In this document: positions 2,386 through 62,777 of the stretch, piece after piece | How the letters are laid out: every line of letters starts with the position of its first letter | Numbering within the stretch: the stretch's first letter is position 1 | The notes under the pieces: generated by a model | What the model was told of the DNA's origin: nothing | Databases searched by the model: none | Seen by the model: only the letters and a program-made list of their open reading frames with translations | Made by a program: the position numbers and the translations under genes | From: Escherichia phage vB_EcoM-G28 | Length of the DNA stretch: 64,000 nucleotides | Direction: 5' to 3' (one strand) | Sequence record: NC_054916.1

Positions 2386-2855
2386 TCAGTGATAAAGTTA
2401 TTTAAATTTTGAGTATATTTCTTTTCATCAAAAATCTTTTGTTGTCTGCGTAAACGCCATGGCATTTCAATGAACATACGCCATATTCCTGATAATACTG
2501 CTGCTGTAAAAATATTAACAAGTATAGTTAAAAGAACCCAATCTCCTATTCTGTCCATTGGATTTTTTATAAAAAAGTAAAATACGAACGATGATATAGG
2601 AAGACTAATGATATACCACAGAAGAACCTTCTTATCTGTGAACCAATCAGCATTCGTTAACTTAGCGCGACCGTTTTGAATACATACGAACTTATCATCT
2701 GTTACAGTAAATGGCTTAGCTGCTTGATATCCCATTCTAAACTCCCTAATCAACAAATTTTTCATATCTTCGGAACAACCATTCCAGTCAACTCTATCAA
2801 CTGAAATGCCATCATCCCCATCATCTAAATCATACCAGCGAGTTTTTAAAATCAT
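2367..2855 (-). CDS. Hypothetical membrane protein (e.2 position)
   Basis: ORF with two clear hydrophobic segments; synteny with T4 e.2. Confidence 0.6.
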
Positions 2856-3214
2856 TTAATTTTCCTACAATCACTCACAAACTCTTTCATTGATTCATTT
2901 TCAATATAAGACATGTAGCTATTATATTCTTTTAATTGTATTTTGTAATCCTTTTTTCTTTGCCAATTTATTTTAAAATTATCATAATAAAAATATAACA
3001 TGGTACCAAAGAATGAAAATAATGAAATAATTTTAGTATAGTGAAGTTCACTCCAAACTTCTATTATATTTACTGTGCCGTCGATGTTTAAAATAATACA
3101 GTCAATTAACAATCCAAAAAGACTACCCGCAAGAGCTGCAGCCAACGCCACAGCAAAAATTAAAAATGACTCAGGAAGCGAATATTTGACTTTATTTAGT
3201 TTTGGCTTTTGCAT
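2852..3214 (-). CDS. Hypothetical membrane protein (e.3 position)
   Basis: ORF with hydrophobic helices; ATGA start/stop overlap with neighbour. Confidence 0.6.
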   Translation of the reverse strand: MQKPKLNKVKYSLPESFLIFAVALAAALAGSLFGLLIDCIILNIDGTVNIIEVWSELHYTKIISLFSFFGTMLYFYYDNFKINWQRKKDYKIQLKEYNSYMSYIENESMKEFVSDCRKIK

Positions 3215-3609
3215 CGTGATTCCTTAACAAATTTCATAATTTCATCAAATTCATGCGCAGCAAGTTTAAGCTGATGTTCCTTTTTAATCTTTTTACACTG
3301 AGCTTTCCAATCACATACACGTTTACGATAGTGTCTTCCTTGATACCAGTATCCTATCCAATTTATAGGTACTAATAAAAGCGGAACTACCAATGGAAGA
3401 ATTAGTGTTGCTCCAAATATTGCACCAGATTCAATATCAGTCATAACGTCTATAACTATTCCAGCAATCAGCAGAATCACAAATGATACGGCTACCACAG
3501 GACCTATTAACACATCAGTAGAAATTATCTGACGCTTTAGTTCATACTTCAAAGGTTTACTTGGAAGGTATAGTGATGGCTTTGACATATTCTCTACATT
3601 CCTTAACAA
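3196..3609 (-). CDS. Hypothetical membrane protein (e.4 position)
   Basis: ORF with multiple hydrophobic segments. Confidence 0.6.
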   Translation of the reverse strand: MLRNVENMSKPSLYLPSKPLKYELKRQIISTDVLIGPVVAVSFVILLIAGIVIDVMTDIESGAIFGATLILPLVVPLLLVPINWIGYWYQGRHYRKRVCDWKAQCKKIKKEHQLKLAAHEFDEIMKFVKESRCKSQN

Positions 3610-4165
3610 ATTTTTCTAGTAATAAATCGCTTTCAAAACTAGGATTTTCCACGAATTTATCAAAAAGATCATCAACAATATTCAAGATATTCCTTTTACT
3701 AAGAATACGTTTATTTTCATGCTTCGTTTCAGAATCAACTATAAGAGTAAAGAAATATTTCTTTCCCTGAAATTTTACCGTAGTATCAATATAAAATAAA
3801 TTTGACTTTTGTAAGTTACGTTTAAACCATGCGTCACTTAAACTATAAACACCGAGATAATCAAAATCGTCGTTTAAATAACAAACTGTCCATTCAGGAG
3901 AAATGAAATCAGTAAATTCAACATCAAAATCACACGTCAGTGAATGAATTGATTCAATACTGTTAATAAGTATTCCAGGACGTATTAAAGACTTTTTACC
4001 TCTAGAAAATCTTCCAGAAAGACTTTCATCAGTTTCATATGAAGAACCCCAATAATAATTACGTCCTTCTGCCATACGTTTAAGAGCATTTAGTAATTGG
4101 TCTGGAACATCAACTTGTCTTTGGAACTCTTCAAACATTGAATTGAAATCATTTTGCATTCTCAT
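3557..4165 (-). CDS. Hypothetical protein (e.5 position)
   Basis: 202-aa ORF, soluble-looking; synteny. Confidence 0.6.
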   Translation of the reverse strand: MRMQNDFNSMFEEFQRQVDVPDQLLNALKRMAEGRNYYWGSSYETDESLSGRFSRGKKSLIRPGILINSIESIHSLTCDFDVEFTDFISPEWTVCYLNDDFDYLGVYSLSDAWFKRNLQKSNLFYIDTTVKFQGKKYFFTLIVDSETKHENKRILSKRNILNIVDDLFDKFVENPSFESDLLLEKFVKECREYVKAITIPSK

Positions 4166-4186
4166 TTCTATTTACTCCAAGTAATA

Positions 4187-4200
4187 GGGGCCGAAGCCCC
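4187..4200. terminator. GC hairpin GGGGC-CGAA-GCCCC (possible weak terminator/RNA stability element)
   Basis: Perfect 5-bp stem with tetraloop; flanking T-tracts are weak on both strands; the identical 14-mer recurs at 44479-44492. Confidence 0.3.
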
Positions 4201-4206
4201 TTATCA

Positions 4207-4800
4207 TTATTTAAGAGAATTAATGTATTCCTGAACATCGGCAGAGGTAGTTTCAACCCCAGAAATATTACCATTAAAGGTTTCAACTCGAGCAAGAGTA
4301 TCTTCAATATCAACCTTAGTCAGTGCTGCAATTTCAACTACATCATCAGCAGTACTAATTCCAAGGGCATTTGCTGCACGAGTTTCACGGATATATTCCA
4401 ATTTAACCGCAAGTTCTTGGCGTGCATCATCTAACTCAACTACTTTCTTGGCGATTTCAATTCGCATTTCAGCATAACCATCAGCTTTAGTAGTCAACTG
4501 CTCAGCTGTTCGACGATATAGCAAGCCGAGTTTAGCATGCATTGTTACATCTTGACCTTCGGAAAGAAGCTTGCGAATTTCACGCTCTTTTGATTCGGCC
4601 TGCTTATTCTTTTCGACAATAAGTTCACGAATACGCTTTTCTTCATTAATAGATTTAACAGAAGCAGTTTTTAGGTCTTTAATTTTATCAAGCAGTTTTG
4701 CTGCTGCGGCAGTATACTGTTCTTCAACAGATAGATTTTTAGCCATAGCAGAACCAAGTTTAGTGCGAATAAACTCAACAATTTTCTTCAGTGTGTTCAT
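4207..4800 (-). CDS. Coiled-coil protein with PspA/IM30-like character (e.6 position)
   Basis: 197-aa ORF, highly charged heptad-like sequence; PspA-like assignment is by eye only. Confidence 0.55.
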
Positions 4801-5020: not shown

Positions 5021-5088
5021 TTATTTCTCCGTTTCTGTGTTTATTTTGATAAGTCTATAATAACACCGTCCTTAGTGTTTGTACACAA

Positions 5089-5364
5089 TTATTTCATATT
5101 ATTGAAATGTTCTTCTGCAATTTCGTCGTTATCATGGTAAACTTTAGAAGACAGTTTAACATAACTTTCAGCAGTGAACATGTTAATCACAACTTTTACA
5201 GTATACCACTGACCGTCTTCATTACCCATTACCGCATAGGTTTCAAACATCGGATGATCAGGACCGATAACTTTAATATCATTCACTGTACGACCGAAAT
5301 CTTCTGAAACGCATTTCATAAAGAAGTTGAACAGTTCGCCGTAATTATCCATTTCATTCTCCAA
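5089..5364 (-). CDS. Hypothetical protein, 91 aa (e.8 position)
   Basis: ORF preceded by an early-type promoter. Confidence 0.55.
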   Translation of the reverse strand: MENEMDNYGELFNFFMKCVSEDFGRTVNDIKVIGPDHPMFETYAVMGNEDGQWYTVKVVINMFTAESYVKLSSKVYHDNDEIAEEHFNNMK

Positions 5365-5395
5365 ATTGTTTTCTGTATCAGTAGTTGATAGTTGT

Positions 5396-5425
5396 ATAGT
5401 ACCATGGAAGAACGGGGATGTAAAC
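5396..5425 (-). promoter_or_regulatory. Early-type promoter (-35 GTTTAC, -10 TACTAT)
   Basis: Same motif architecture as the other early promoters; sits about 30 nt upstream of the 5364 start. Confidence 0.5.
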
Positions 5426-5455
5426 CGTTTTGTGAAAAAATTTTAAAAATTTTTA

Positions 5456-58002: not shown

Positions 58003-58006
58003 CAAT

Positions 58007-58036
58007 GGGGACCGAAAGGTCCCCATATTTTTATTT
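58007..58036 (+). terminator. Intrinsic terminator after gene 54 (GGGGACC-GAAA-GGTCCCC + ATATTTTTATTT)
   Basis: Hairpin and T-run. Confidence 0.8.
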
Positions 58037-58321
58037 ACGGAATGAAATAAAAGCAGCAACTGAAGCAACTAAACTGTCTTCAATATAAACTTCAATTTTT
58101 ACCGGAGCTTCTGACTCAAATTTACCTGTTACTACACCTTGGAAAATGCTTTCAGTCTGTTCTGGCTTTGAAAAATTTTCAGAAGGAAAAATTCCGAACT
58201 TTTTATCTGTTCCAAAAATTTTGATAAATTCATCGTAAACCGCTTCATTAAAAGCGTTATCAGCAGGAATAACGCCTTCAACTACGAGTTCTTGACCTAA
58301 AAAGCGCAAAGAAGATTTCAT
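58031..58321 (-). CDS. Hypothetical protein, 96 aa (alt.-3-like position)
   Basis: ORF, synteny. Confidence 0.55.
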   Translation of the reverse strand: MKSSLRFLGQELVVEGVIPADNAFNEAVYDEFIKIFGTDKKFGIFPSENFSKPEQTESIFQGVVTGKFESEAPVKIEVYIEDSLVASVAAFISFRK

Positions 58322-58381
58322 TTTGTGTTCCTCATGTTATGTCAGTAAGATTATTATAACACAACACGAGGGACTTGTAAA

Positions 58382-60439
58382 CTATATTTTGAACTTTTTA
58401 GACATTTCGTTGATGTTAACCAAAGAAGCCAAGATTTGAGAAACTTCGTTTTCCTCTTCTTTTGATTCTTCTACAAGGAATTGATTAAATCCAGCCATTG
58501 GACGAACTTCACCAGTTTCCATTAGATGGTCGCCATCATATACCGATTCTTCTAACTGTTCAGAAGGAGGAACGATTGTGCCTTCGATTAGATACTTGTT
58601 ATAAGCAGTTTCTTTCATCATGTACGTACTCACTTTATTAATCTTCAGCAAAATTCCACGCGGTAGAATAACTTCAGCTTCTGATGGAAATCCTGATAAA
58701 TGACCTGGAACGATAACTTTGATTCGCTCAGCTCCTTTAATTACCATACCCGCGCTAGTTTCAGCATCTTCATTGGCATACGTAGAATGACTGCCCATAT
58801 GCATCAAATCTTCAGCATCAACTGAACCTTCTCCTTCACCAGAAAATACTGTGCCGGAATCATCTAGAGCCATATAGTTTTTACCATACTCACCGAAGAT
58901 ATTTGGTTTAAGCGATGTGGATACGAAGTTCTTGAAGTAGAACATTTTATTTTCAATATTATGACGTAAAGTTTTAAAGGTAACTTCTTGTCCACGGTAA
59001 AGTGTAGTTCCTGGAGGAAGAACTGATCCTTTGGCAAAGGCAGAATCCATTGTCTCGATGTGTTTAATAGCTCGTTCCATATATTCTTCACGGGTAGAAT
59101 CCGGTTTACCTAAAAGGAACGAGTTCATTTCAACATATGAATCTGCACAATAATCTTCAATTACATCAGACTCAGCTTGAGTTAATCCTTTTGGAGTTAC
59201 TTCAGTACTTGCATATTCATACGCTTGAGAAGCAGACTCATTAATCAATTTATAAATGCCATTCATGACAAATTGAACAATAGCTACCTTTTCATCTGGT
59301 GTAGCTTTAGAACCTTTAACTAAATCATTGACGATTTTCTTAATAACATCAAAGCTATTAGAAATATTAATGTCAGCAAGATCACTTAAAATTTTATCAG
59401 TTTTATAATCAAAAAATTCTTTATTCTTTAAATATTCTTGAGAACCTTGATATGATATATCGCTCTGTAACTTGATAGATGGATCACGTAAACGCGCATG
59501 AGCCAATGCAATATGATTTCGGAAGCTTTCTAATTCATAATCGCTAGATTTAAAACGGGAAGCACTTCTCATACCACCGATAGCTCCTTTGCTGAAGTTT
59601 GAACCAACCTGAATAACGCCAGAGTTCATTGGTCCTTCTGCTTTATATACCGGAACTTTAGATTCAAACTCTTGATATTTCTTAGCAGCGAAGCTATCAC
59701 CCTGAAGTGAAGCATCGACAGTAGAATATTGAGCTTGTGCTGCTAATCGACGACTAATTTTAGTTTTCTGAATAACAGCTTGATCCGTACGCTTATCATT
59801 TTCTAAAGCAATAGAAGCAGCAACAGCAACAGCTTTAGGAACAGCATTGCCTGTTTTAACATCTACATAAACATCACCAACCTTTGATTCAACTTTTGTG
59901 AATAACTCAGTTGAAATAGGAGGTACACCTGGAATGTCTTCTAAATTGGCATTTTTACGGTAAACCATAATATATGCATATTTCTTATCATAGTCCCAGA
60001 TTTCCTTTAAAAGAACATATCGACCTGCTCCTTTAGTACGTACTAAACGGTCGGCAATAACTTGCATTTGACGAGCTGCACCGTTTGTTTTACTCTTTAG
60101 TACGCGGAATAAGCATGCGTCAATTTTGTACTGTTTCATTGTCTGAAGAGCAGTATCAAAAACCGCATTAATAACACCAATTGGATTTCCACCCAAGTTT
60201 TTAAGTTTAACGAGCGATAGTTTCTCATTAACACCTATCATTACGATATGCATCATTTTATCGCCTGGCTTAACGTTTTTATTTGTATCACCGCCAGAGG
60301 TGTATGTACAAAATCTAAATCCAGGAAGCACGCTTTCTTCACCGGCTTGAATAGCAAAAATTTGAGGTATTTTATGCTTAGGATTTAAGTTAACAACCGG
60401 CGCCGAAGCGCCGTCAAATAATTCTGTAATAAGTTCCAT
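58382..60439 (-). CDS. Alt-family mono-ADP-ribosyltransferase paralogue, 685 aa
   Basis: N-terminal region similar to the adjacent copy (MELITELFD..., QYKIDAC, RYVLLKE.WDYDKKYAY); ART-like R / S-T-S / E motifs (TLYRG, FVSTSL, EAEVILPRG). Confidence 0.75.
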   Translation of the reverse strand: MELITELFDGASAPVVNLNPKHKIPQIFAIQAGEESVLPGFRFCTYTSGGDTNKNVKPGDKMMHIVMIGVNEKLSLVKLKNLGGNPIGVINAVFDTALQTMKQYKIDACLFRVLKSKTNGAARQMQVIADRLVRTKGAGRYVLLKEIWDYDKKYAYIMVYRKNANLEDIPGVPPISTELFTKVESKVGDVYVDVKTGNAVPKAVAVAASIALENDKRTDQAVIQKTKISRRLAAQAQYSTVDASLQGDSFAAKKYQEFESKVPVYKAEGPMNSGVIQVGSNFSKGAIGGMRSASRFKSSDYELESFRNHIALAHARLRDPSIKLQSDISYQGSQEYLKNKEFFDYKTDKILSDLADINISNSFDVIKKIVNDLVKGSKATPDEKVAIVQFVMNGIYKLINESASQAYEYASTEVTPKGLTQAESDVIEDYCADSYVEMNSFLLGKPDSTREEYMERAIKHIETMDSAFAKGSVLPPGTTLYRGQEVTFKTLRHNIENKMFYFKNFVSTSLKPNIFGEYGKNYMALDDSGTVFSGEGEGSVDAEDLMHMGSHSTYANEDAETSAGMVIKGAERIKVIVPGHLSGFPSEAEVILPRGILLKINKVSTYMMKETAYNKYLIEGTIVPPSEQLEESVYDGDHLMETGEVRPMAGFNQFLVEESKEEENEVSQILASLVNINEMSKKFKI

Positions 60440-60442
60440 GAT

Positions 60443-62539
60443 TTATCCTTGAACGAACTTGTAAGGCATGTTTGTAATATCTATGCAAGACGCAATAATT
60501 CCAAGAGATGATTCTACTTTCTGTTTAACATTTGATGAAACAAATGATGCAAAGTCAACTCTGTCTTCTATTTCAATATCACCTGTCATTGCAATTACTT
60601 CACCAGTTTCCATTAGACGGTCACCGTCATAAATTACTGATTCGGTGAGTTCTTCCGTAGTCATAACTTCAGCTTGAATGAGTTTTGTATTATTAGATGT
60701 TGTTCCGTCATTATTAGAAGCATCAGTTATTTTATTAACTTTGACCATCAATCCGCGTGGTAGAATAACTTCAGCTTCTGTTGCTATTCCGAGACTTCCT
60801 GGATATACAACATTAACTTTATGAGCTCCATCAATTGCCCATCCTATTTGAACTTTAACGTATTCAGGATTTTCTTTATACGCTCTTATTTCGTTTGGAT
60901 TAATAGTTATTCCTTCTTCATTTTTATCAACTGTTAATTCATTACGAGCTTCTGGTTCTAAAAGACCAATGCCAGCATGTGTAATTCCAAAACGCCCAAA
61001 AATGATAGGAGTTAAAGAAGTAGATACAAAATTTCTGAAATAGAACACTTTATTTTTAACTAGCGCTTCGTATATAGGAGCAGTCATACTTTGAGCACGA
61101 TAAACTGTAATGCTTTCTGGTATACGGTCACCGTTTTCAAAAGCTGAATCTAAGTTATTTATAGCAGATTCAATTTCTTTTTCACTCATTACATCATATC
61201 GTTCTGGATTGTAGCGTCCTAAAAGAAGATTATTGATGTCAGTATATCCTGAACCGCAATACTCTCTAATGCCGCGCTTTTGTGATGGAGTATATTTAGA
61301 ACCATCACGGGCAATAGTAATATCAATCATTGGACCTGCACCAATTCCAGAAAAACTATAAATCATTCGTTTGATGAATTTAGTTTTTGCTGCGTTCCAG
61401 GAATTTTTAGTTATTTCTTCCCAGACTTCATCTGGCTGCCCTTTACGAGTTTTATTATGTTTATCAAGCCAAGTATCTTTATATTCTTCAAAGAATTTAT
61501 TAATAGCTGCTGCATACTTCTCTAAACATTTTATTGAAGTAGTTGGTTCATTTTTGATCGCGTTAAAAATTACGTCTTTAATTTTTTCAGAAACTTCATT
61601 AACCTCACTTTTTGAAAAGAATTTATAATCATAGTGAAGTTCATCTGCAGTTCCTTCGGCAATAATTTTTGCTGCTTTAGTTTTAGAAGCTAATGAATTA
61701 ATTCCAAGCTTCATTTCTTCTGCTTCGGGAATTAAAGGAGCGGTAGCAGGTTTATTGAAATTAGCTGCGGTAGATTCATACTTCTGGAATAATTCGCTTT
61801 CAAATCTAGAAGATTCCAATGACTGACTTTGCGCAATTGCTCTACGGGAAATTTTAACTTTAACGATTACAGCTTGGTCAGAACGTTTATCATTTTCTTG
61901 CGCAATAGATGCAGCAATTGCCTCATTTTTAGTTACTTGAGCTCCAGTATCTTTATTGATATAAACATCGCCGACTTTCGATTCAACTTTAGTAAAGAGC
62001 TCGGTACTAATTTCCGGAACTCCTGGAATGTCTTCTAGTGATACATTTTTGCGATGTATAAGAATATATGCATACTTTTTATCATAATCCCAGAGTTCCT
62101 TAAGAAGGACGTATCTGCCACCTGAACGACTACGGATAAGTCTATCAGCAATAACTTGAATTTGTTGAGCTTGACCAGCAGTTTTAGACTTAAGAATACG
62201 GAGCATACAGGCATCAATTTTATACTGACGCATCGTCTGCATTGCAACAGTAAAAACTGAATTGATATAATTAATTGGGCTTGGACCAAGACCTTTTAAT
62301 TTGGCAATTGAACCTTTAGCAGTTAATGTAAAAGGAACAATATGCATCATTTTATCGCCCATTTTTAAATCGCGATTAGTATCACCTCCAGATGTATAGG
62401 TACATAAACGAAAGCCCGGTTGTTCAATTGCATCATCAACGTGAACTGAAAAAATTTGTGGTATTTTCTTCTTTGGATTTAAGTTTGTAATCGGAAGAGT
62501 AGTATCTTCGTCAAATAATTCTGTAATGAGTTCCATCAT
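60443..62539 (-). CDS. alt: Alt ADP-ribosyltransferase (packaged, modifies host RNA polymerase), 698 aa
   Basis: Position adjacent to gene 30; ART motifs (TVYRAQ, FVSTSL, EAEVILPRG); own late promoter. Confidence 0.75.
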   Translation of the reverse strand: MMELITELFDEDTTLPITNLNPKKKIPQIFSVHVDDAIEQPGFRLCTYTSGGDTNRDLKMGDKMMHIVPFTLTAKGSIAKLKGLGPSPINYINSVFTVAMQTMRQYKIDACMLRILKSKTAGQAQQIQVIADRLIRSRSGGRYVLLKELWDYDKKYAYILIHRKNVSLEDIPGVPEISTELFTKVESKVGDVYINKDTGAQVTKNEAIAASIAQENDKRSDQAVIVKVKISRRAIAQSQSLESSRFESELFQKYESTAANFNKPATAPLIPEAEEMKLGINSLASKTKAAKIIAEGTADELHYDYKFFSKSEVNEVSEKIKDVIFNAIKNEPTTSIKCLEKYAAAINKFFEEYKDTWLDKHNKTRKGQPDEVWEEITKNSWNAAKTKFIKRMIYSFSGIGAGPMIDITIARDGSKYTPSQKRGIREYCGSGYTDINNLLLGRYNPERYDVMSEKEIESAINNLDSAFENGDRIPESITVYRAQSMTAPIYEALVKNKVFYFRNFVSTSLTPIIFGRFGITHAGIGLLEPEARNELTVDKNEEGITINPNEIRAYKENPEYVKVQIGWAIDGAHKVNVVYPGSLGIATEAEVILPRGLMVKVNKITDASNNDGTTSNNTKLIQAEVMTTEELTESVIYDGDRLMETGEVIAMTGDIEIEDRVDFASFVSSNVKQKVESSLGIIASCIDITNMPYKFVQG

Positions 62540-62559: not shown

Positions 62560-62567
62560 TATTTATA
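62560..62567 (-). promoter_or_regulatory. Late promoter TATAAATA (minus) for alt
   Basis: Reverse complement of tatttata 21 nt upstream of the alt start. Confidence 0.55.
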
Positions 62568-62572
62568 AAATT

Positions 62573-62590
62573 AAAGGCCCGAAGGCCTTT
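62573..62590 (-). terminator. Hairpin AAAGGCC-CGAA-GGCCTTT upstream of alt (possible terminator for gene 30 operon read-through)
   Basis: Stem-loop with T-rich tail on the minus strand. Confidence 0.4.
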
Positions 62591-62777
62591 AATAATCTAT
62601 TGGTAAGAGAGTACGATATATTTCAAACTTTGGACCTTTTTCATAAGCATCAAAAGTTTCTGTGAATTTATTATAAGCATATGCATCTATAAATTCAATC
62701 ATGATTTGTGATACAGAAGTAGAAACATCTCCACCTTCTTTTTGAGCCACGACAATTGTTTCTAAGTAAGCTTTCAT
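62589..62777 (-). CDS. Hypothetical protein, 62 aa, translationally coupled to gene 30 (ATGA overlap)
   Basis: ORF, overlap with the gene 30 stop. Confidence 0.5.
   Translation of the reverse strand: MKAYLETIVVAQKEGGDVSTSVSQIMIEFIDAYAYNKFTETFDAYEKGPKFEIYRTLLPIDY

Follow-up and report, generated by a model that had tools for sequence, protein, structure and literature searches.

Does a second complete alt gene give a T-even phage a second injected ADP-ribosyltransferase (ART), and would such an enzyme act on host proteins of its own? The question is raised by one end of a 64,000-nucleotide (nt) stretch of Escherichia phage vB_EcoM-G28 (NC_054916.1), referred to here as the window, which carries a T4-type block made up of genes 48 and 54 on the plus strand and of alt.-3, two long open reading frames (ORFs), alt.1 and the gene 30 ligase on the minus strand. 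A first-pass annotation had described the two ORFs as adjacent full-length Alt-family genes of 685 and 698 amino acids (aa), lying at 58382..60439 and 60443..62539, and both were found to be so. They are called ALT-B and ALT-A here, ALT-A being the upstream copy, with 3 nt between its stop and the start of ALT-B. The evidence supports a tandem of two divergent, full-length Alt-family ART genes that are apparently catalytically competent. It is probable that the pair forms a two-gene operon of paralogous arginine-specific mono-ADP-ribosyltransferases, both of which would be packaged and injected, most likely to act on different host targets.

Sequence, catalytic residues and predicted fold

ALT-A and ALT-B share 41% identity overall (BLASTP, E = 9e-162), which is distributed unevenly along the proteins. 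Residues 1-237 are 67.5% identical, in agreement with the roughly 230 similar N-terminal residues noticed at first pass, and the strong divergence described for the central and catalytic regions was likewise borne out, with approximately 17-21% identity in the helical middle (residues 238-415) and approximately 37-41% in the ART domain. The YDGDxLMETGE block is 71% identical between the copies, and the loop between the S-T-S and E-x-E motifs is approximately 6% identical, with insertions and deletions. Both proteins are recognized by PF03496 (ADPrib_exo_Tox), with 72.5 bits for ALT-B (E = 3.9e-20) and 129.5 bits for ALT-A (E = 1.3e-37), the Pfam gathering cut-off being 23.4 bits. Similarly, phrog_802, annotated as 'Alt-like RNA polymerase ADP-ribosyltransferase', matches residues 1-684 of ALT-B (E = 2e-254) and residues 1-696 of ALT-A (E = 1.6e-270). 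PF26846 (Tevenvirinae_ADPRT) is precomputed for P0001, the 98%-identical representative of the ALT-B cluster, and was not reported for ALT-A or ALT-B in the scan with the local Pfam copy.

The ART-type R / S-T-S / E motifs are present in both copies, as had been claimed (Table 1), and R / S-T-S / E-x-E is invariant in a family alignment of 17 sequences, so that neither copy lacks its catalytic residues on proper alignment. E-x-E is the arginine-specific type of the ADP-ribosylating toxin turn-turn (ARTT) motif and predicts arginine specificity for both copies. In T4 Alt, the motif corresponds to E574-M-E576 in RefSeq numbering, and a mutant designated 'E577A' is inactive (PMC11404850).

Since a sequence search with ALT-B against PDB chains gave no match at E <= 0.01, the ART fold was confirmed via the predicted structure. 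The AlphaFold model of ALT-B, with a predicted local distance difference test (pLDDT) score of 77, consists of an alpha/beta N-domain, a helical middle and an ART domain. The modelled ART domain superposes on the Vis toxin 4xzj (E = 1.1e-8, target-normalised template modelling (TM) score of 0.65) and also matches Certhrax, C3bot, VIP2 and CDTa. The R-S-E toxins (C3, VIP2, iota, Vis and Certhrax) and the T4 proteins ModA and ModB resemble the Alt copies in having the ART fold and the R / S-T-S / E-x-E residues, but their sequence identity to them is only 14-20%, and they are secreted toxins or small early phage proteins without the Alt N-domain, the helical middle or the gp21-processed termini.

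Relationship to the alt locus of T4

Pairwise alignment of the two ORFs with each other and with T4 Alt upheld both the paralogy and the orthology of ALT-A. T4 Alt (NP_049811), a head-packaged NAD+--arginine ADP-ribosyltransferase, shares with ALT-A the position between alt.1/gene 30 and alt.-3/gene 54, the late promoter context, the catalytic motifs and the gp21 sites, and the two proteins are 98% identical in the N-domain and 87-90% identical at the C-terminus. They differ in the middle (31% identity) and in the ART domain (62-67%), where synonymous sites are saturated. ALT-B has the same architecture and motifs as T4 Alt, but is a paralogue, with 41-44% identity overall. By sequence and gene order, ALT-A is the positional orthologue of T4 alt and ALT-B the intact form of T4 alt.-1 and alt.-2. 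The second ATG of the ALT-A ORF, at 62536, gives the MELITE start of T4 Alt and fits the published numbering of the ITE-6 processing site; ALT-A is therefore most likely 697 rather than 698 aa long.

Whether T4 itself has a second full-length copy had been left as a question at first pass; it has none, and holds a truncated, frameshifted remnant in its place. In T4 (NC_000866), the interval between gene 54 and alt contains alt.-3, alt.-2 (67 aa) and alt.-1 (61 aa), and the annotation of the record already attributes alt.-1 and alt.-2 to an old duplication of the beginning of alt. The products of alt.-1 and alt.-2 (NP_049810 and NP_049809; phrog_23015 and phrog_15247) align to ALT-B residues 1-57 and 62-118, respectively, and are what is left of the gene that is intact in the window, the remnant mapping to 5066-5451 of the T4 locus (L001) and to 58382-60439 of the window. 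Compared with ALT-B, the T4 sequence lacks 1 nt at ALT-B nt 160, which shifts the frame, and 1,699 bp (ALT-B nt 340-2038) between the repeats CTAAAGAG and CTAAAAAG, a deletion with a CTAAA(G/A)AG direct repeat at its endpoints. Owing to these two deletions, T4 alt.-2 ends in sequence that is intergenic in the window, its tail (SLQVPRVVL) reading into the region downstream of the ALT-B stop. T4 lost ALT-B through this frameshift and this deletion.

Selection on the two copies and single-gene fusions

The ratio of non-synonymous to synonymous substitution rates (dN/dS) of ALT-B against its orthologues is 0.05 for PST, 0.075 for ECML-134 and 0.15 for the more divergent contig L007, where aa identity is 75%; ALT-B is under strong purifying selection. 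Between the N-domains of ALT-A and ALT-B, synonymous sites are saturated, with a synonymous distance (dS) of 1.58 and a dN/dS of 0.18, so the duplication is old and both copies are constrained. Recent gene conversion was also considered as a cause of the N-terminal similarity and is rejected on account of the same saturated dS.

ECML-134, SCS4, PST and a 65-kb Logan contig each have just one alt gene, in which the N-terminus of ALT-A is joined to the rest of ALT-B, with breakpoints that differ (aa 147-158, 98-102 and 174-192). At 95% identity or more, a single fused gene was found in six records, namely, ECML-134 twice, SCS4, PST twice and one more. Two further Logan proteins (P0004 and P0007), with breakpoints at 102-110 and 218-224, are similar; for them, a single copy is less firmly established, as each contig stops shortly behind the gene. 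At least three, and probably five, different breakpoints lie in the shared N-domain, and the fusions look like unequal crossovers that deleted the ALT-A effector. They are unlikely to be artefacts of Logan assembly, since the longest exact run common to the N-domain DNAs of ALT-A and ALT-B is 20 nt and the same fusions occur in complete GenBank genomes. Because ECML-134, SCS4, PST and the Logan contig carry the fusion as their single gene, the effector part of ALT-B can serve as the only Alt of a phage.

These results bear on the idea that ALT-B, as a redundant duplicate, is decaying towards a pseudogene, or that it serves in the core as a structural protein without catalytic activity. Such decay would agree with the destruction of the gene in the T4 lineage, the T4-type deletion junction being found in 91 phage records, and with the finding that Alt itself is non-essential in T4 (PMC9026906). 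However, the 685-codon ORF is intact, with neither frameshifts nor internal stops, its R, S-T-S and E-x-E residues are invariant, and its dN/dS values lie far from the value near 1 of a pseudogene, including that for the orthologue at only 75% identity, so that the selection analysis largely refutes this explanation. Approximately 395 phage records retain ALT-B at 95% identity or more, and the independent fusions keep the ALT-B cassette and discard that of ALT-A. A decaying or inert ALT-B is accordingly regarded as very improbable, and an active enzyme is preferred in what follows.

Operon layout

The first-pass claim that only the upstream copy has a late promoter holds for the intergenic sequence: the T4-type late promoter motif TATAAATA at 62567-62560 is the sole such motif in front of the pair, and nothing comparable to it fits in the 3-nt gap before ALT-B. 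It does not hold for the coding sequence, where a second TATAAATA is found inside ALT-A. As a dedicated ALT-B promoter, this in-gene motif is disfavoured, since T4 and L007 lack it at the corresponding site and chance alone would put approximately 0.16 such motifs into a gene as long as ALT-A (shuffle mean); it is probably a coding coincidence.

Upstream of ALT-A, a hairpin (62590-62573), the TATAAATA motif, the sequence GAGAGGA and the ATG follow one another, and the hairpin-then-promoter layout is common to T4, L007, JS10, MX01 and SP18. The hairpin, AAAGGCCTTCGGGCCTTT, resembles a terminator that would end the early 30/alt.1 transcript and was not called by a simple terminator scan. The junction AAGG(A/G)-TAA-NNN-ATG is conserved in the window, L007, JS10 and MX01, and each of these arrays has one (T/C)ATAAATA late motif, which reads CATAAATA in JS10 and MX01. 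This anatomy suggests co-transcription and coupled translation, in which both genes would be transcribed late from the single TATAAATA upstream of ALT-A, and ALT-B would be translated from a Shine-Dalgarno sequence within the last ALT-A codons. The hairpin between alt.-3 and gene 54 is the likely end of the alt late transcript. In arrays with the 3-nt gap, the upstream copy ends in ...KF(V/I)QG-TAA and the last copy in KFKI or KFKM.

Predicted packaging, processing and injection

T4 Alt is a prohead-core protein that is present in approximately 40 copies and injected with the DNA (PMC9026906). It is cut by gp21 at ITE-6 and LTE-619 to 68.2 kDa, losing 63 C-terminal residues (PMC5694885), and the mass computed for residues 7-619, 68.2 kDa, matches the published value. 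ALT-A keeps ITE-6 and LTE-632, with a predicted mature mass of 70.2 kDa, and ALT-B keeps ITE-6 and LEE-631, the latter followed by SVYDGD, with a predicted mature mass of 69.1 kDa. The family alignment shows no variation at E6 or E631, and the motif L-x-E followed by S/N-x-(V/I)-YDGDxLMETGE is retained in nearly all copies examined. On these homologies, ALT-B is expected to be packaged, processed and injected like T4 Alt. The two proteins would have in common a delivery module made of the N-terminal alpha/beta domain, the ITE-6 gp21 site and the C-propeptide that starts from L-x-E followed by S-V-YDGDxLMETGE; both would be incorporated into the core of the prohead, cut back by gp21 at both ends to approximately 69-70 kDa and injected with the DNA.

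A comparable design is known from T4 IPI-IPIII and from MuF-fused or polymorphic effectors, which combine a conserved packaging element with fast-varying injected cargo at a recombination-prone locus (PMC9026906, PMC9503650). They have no sequence relationship to Alt, which sheds only six N-terminal residues and also has a C-terminal propeptide. By analogy with these systems, the Alt N-domain may act as a delivery handle.

ALT-B might instead be expressed and active but stay out of the virion, acting late inside the producing cell, much as the T4 ARTs ModA and ModB act intracellularly (PMC10468400). This is considered quite improbable, given that the whole N-domain and both gp21 motifs are kept at homologous positions and that ALT-B would be co-transcribed with ALT-A from the late promoter. 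In addition, ECML-134 and PST join the ALT-B cassette to the N-terminus of ALT-A as their only Alt protein. Packaging of both copies is the reading retained here.

Exchange of effector cassettes

In the ALT-A gene, nt 681-1937 are 80% identical in DNA to alt copy 1 of Dhakavirus JS10 (L008 2913-4997) and 79% identical to that of MX01 (L009 1864-3948), and its N-domain and C-tail gave no blastn match to JS10 alt copy 1. The segment from the ART domain to ETGE has 92% protein identity to JS10 and a dS of 0.49, while the flanking genes, the N-domain and the C-tail are saturated in dS between the window and JS10; hence, the effector cassette has moved between phage genera within a lineage-specific frame. 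Compared with T4, the flanking genes of the window have a dS of 0.03-0.16 and the ALT-A N-domain a dS of 0.13, whereas the middle and the ART domain exceed 1.2, which points to cassette replacement rather than in-place drift as the origin of the difference between ALT-A and T4 Alt in these parts.

With the N-domain as query, phmmer recovered no more than 69 clusters from 1.84 billion cluster representatives, no informative solved structural relative was found, and eight of the ten clusters scanned carry an ART domain, one of the eight below the Pfam cut-off. The possibility that the N-domain is a handle common to other effector types is unsupported by sequence, its clusters being tied to ART domains. 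In a Foldseek search of BFVD, the ALT-B N-domain model matched the N-terminal parts of large, functionally uncharacterised proteins from unrelated myoviruses, for instance, phiEa2809, Dickeya RC-2014 and Vibrio VP-1 (E = 1e-7 to 1e-9, query-normalised TM of approximately 0.5, 12-15% identity), which sequence searches with the N-domain do not reach. Weaker matches (E of approximately 1e-5 to 3e-4) include a 'zeta toxin domain' protein of Atu_ph07 and a deaminase-domain protein. The recurrence of this fold may hint at a more general delivery handle and is taken as a lead only.

A wider proposal is put forward tentatively, its chances being a little short of even: the alt locus would be a modular array of capsid-delivered effectors, in which a lineage-specific frame of N-domain and C-propeptide holds ART cassettes that are duplicated, fused, deleted and swapped between genera, and ALT-B would have a host target of its own, possibly a defence or stress-response protein, that is not hit by Alt.

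Distribution and earlier records

The 4.8-kb two-gene block is found in 355 phage records at 95-99% identity over at least 80% of its length, usually annotated as 'Alt-like RNA polymerase ADP-ribosyltransferase (x2)', and the ALT-B cluster at 90% identity has 772 member sequences in a large protein collection. Two Alt genes are present in approximately four-fifths of the sequenced Tequatrovirus records; the two-copy state is the majority state in this genus, and T4 is the unusual genome. Tandem arrays of two or three copies are also known from JS10, MX01, SP18 (alta/altb), Aeromonas phage 31 and the contig L007. The second copies annotated in RB32 ('alt.-2'), PP01, AR1, SHFML-11/6phi13, JS10 (two copies), MX01 (three), SP18 (alta/altb) and Aeromonas 31/44RR (ORF187c) have the same tandem layout and are often the same gene at 95-99% identity, with no material difference.

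Array size varies among relatives. MX01 has three tandem full-length alt copies (L009 1864-8124), and Aeromonas phage 31 has two full-length copies and the 319-aa ORF188c (L011 2058-6926), the 44RR counterpart of which was listed as an alt paralogue (Nolan et al., 2006; PMC1524935). Other alt paralogues appear in the same study, one of them, from 44RR, being full-length. Two Alt-like paralogues with 43% identity were described for 6phi13 and SHFML-11 in 2026, together with the proposal of an expanded target range (PMC13600099). The two-copy arrangement and the target-range hypothesis are thus already known, and the window is another case of a common genotype.

Do the two copies have different targets?

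Between the parts of the putative delivery module lies the variable effector cassette, made of the helical middle and the ART domain, which has 17-40% identity between the copies and the greatest difference in the loop from S-T-S to E-x-E. Since the effector cassettes have diverged, the sets of host proteins modified at the onset of infection most likely differ between the two enzymes.

Alternatively, both copies could be packaged and active on the same targets (RNA polymerase alpha and other Alt substrates), in which case the second one would provide dosage or robustness. The arginine-type E-x-E and the same overall architecture in both copies would agree with this, as would the viability both of phages with a single A/B fusion and of phages with ALT-A only, and many targets are already known for T4 Alt, a promiscuous enzyme (PMC10468400; PMC5512222, citing Depping 2005). 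However, identity falls to approximately 17-21% in the middle and approximately 6% in the S-T-S to E-x-E loop, with insertions and deletions; each paralogue lineage is nevertheless held by purifying selection; and dosage alone would hardly account for the persistence of both lineages together in different genera. Shared targets are therefore judged unlikely, and different targets remain the preferred reading.

Several points weigh against two injected enzymes with separate targets. ALT-B is missing from T4 and 90 other records, which do well nonetheless; it is therefore dispensable, at least on laboratory hosts. The divergence of targets is deduced from sequence divergence alone, and the loop of ALT-B that diverges most from ALT-A is modelled with the lowest confidence (pLDDT 56-63). 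The first-pass annotation had also raised the prospect that the arrangement was already annotated and characterised; annotated it is, in hundreds of T-even genomes, and the searchable papers yielded no virion proteomics, biochemistry or functional characterisation specific to the second Alt copy.

Table 1. Features of the alt locus in the window and of fused genes in related records (positions are those of the window unless a record is named).
Feature	Position	Strand	Basis or remark
ALT-A	60443..62536	-	697 aa; positional orthologue of T4 alt
ALT-B	58382..60439	-	685 aa; second full-length Alt paralogue and the intact form of T4 alt.-1 + alt.-2; = RB32 'alt.-2'
ALT-A catalytic Arg480 (YRAQ)	61097..61099	-	alignment
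ALT-A S-T-S, residues 505-507	61016..61024	-	alignment
ALT-A E-A-E, E587 + E589	60770..60778	-	alignment
ALT-A effector cassette, gene nt 681-1937, aa ~227-646	60600..61856	-	blastn to JS10 alt copy 1
ALT-B catalytic Arg482 (YRGQ)	58994..58996	-	alignment
ALT-B S-T-S, residues 507-509	58913..58921	-	alignment
ALT-B E-A-E, E587 + E589	58673..58681	-	alignment
ALT-B N-terminal alpha/beta domain, aa 1-237	59729..60439	-	PF26846 in cluster representative; contains gp21 site ITE-6
ALT-B variable helical middle, aa 238-415	59195..59728	-	~17-21% identity to ALT-A
ALT-B ART domain, up to predicted cleavage site LEE-631	58547..59194	-	PF03496 and predicted fold
ALT-B predicted C-terminal propeptide, aa 632-685, SVYDGDHLMETGEV...KFKI	58385..58546	-	homologous to the 63-residue piece of T4 Alt
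T4-type late promoter motif TATAAATA	62560..62567	-	24 nt upstream of ALT-A ATG (62536)
GC-rich hairpin AAAGGCCTTCGGGCCTTT, then T-rich run	62573..62590	-	just upstream of late promoter, after alt.1
Array junction AAGGA-TAA-ATC-ATG	60437..60450	-	ALT-B Shine-Dalgarno inside last ALT-A codons, then stop, 3 nt, ALT-B start
In-gene TATAAATA inside ALT-A	61156..61163	-	717 nt upstream of ALT-B start; codons for A-I-N-N
Sigma-70/T4-early-like promoter TTTACA-17-TATAAT	58353..58381	-	11/12 matches, TG extension; before alt.-3, directly after ALT-B stop
Bidirectional terminator hairpin	58005..58026	.	between alt.-3 and gene 54
alt.1	62589..62777	-	62 aa; upstream neighbour; Pfam Phage_blade PF24647, E = 7.5e-29
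alt.-3	58031..58321	-	96 aa; DUF5498; downstream neighbour; protein 100% identical to T4 Alt.-3
Single-copy A/B fusion genes	ECML-134 (L005) 2501-4561; PST (L006) 2501-4561; L002 6001-8055; L003, L004, L012

Neighbouring genes

The upstream neighbour, alt.1, overlaps the stop of gene 30 (DNA ligase), and its protein is 100% identical to T4 Alt.1; PF24647, to which it belongs, is a recent Pfam family. A disruption of gene 30, suspected from a 383-aa ORF with a TTG start, is rejected, as the translated frame runs off the end of the window. On the downstream side, C-terminal extension mutants of T4 alt.-3 are known to escape the CmdTAC defence system (PMC11618068).

Implications for T-even phages

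As a genome observation, the locus represents the ordinary, already annotated state of T-even phages. Nature provides three genotypes for comparison: phages with two copies, phages of the T4 type with ALT-A only, and phages such as ECML-134 and PST with a single A/B fusion. The knowledge of injected phage ADP-ribosyltransferases comes almost wholly from T4, which has one intact alt gene. If ALT-B does have targets of its own, host proteins would be modified more broadly at the outset of takeover by typical T-even phages, including many therapeutic isolates, than the T4 model indicates, and T4, having lost ALT-B, would under-report the injected ADP-ribosylation repertoire of typical T-even phages.

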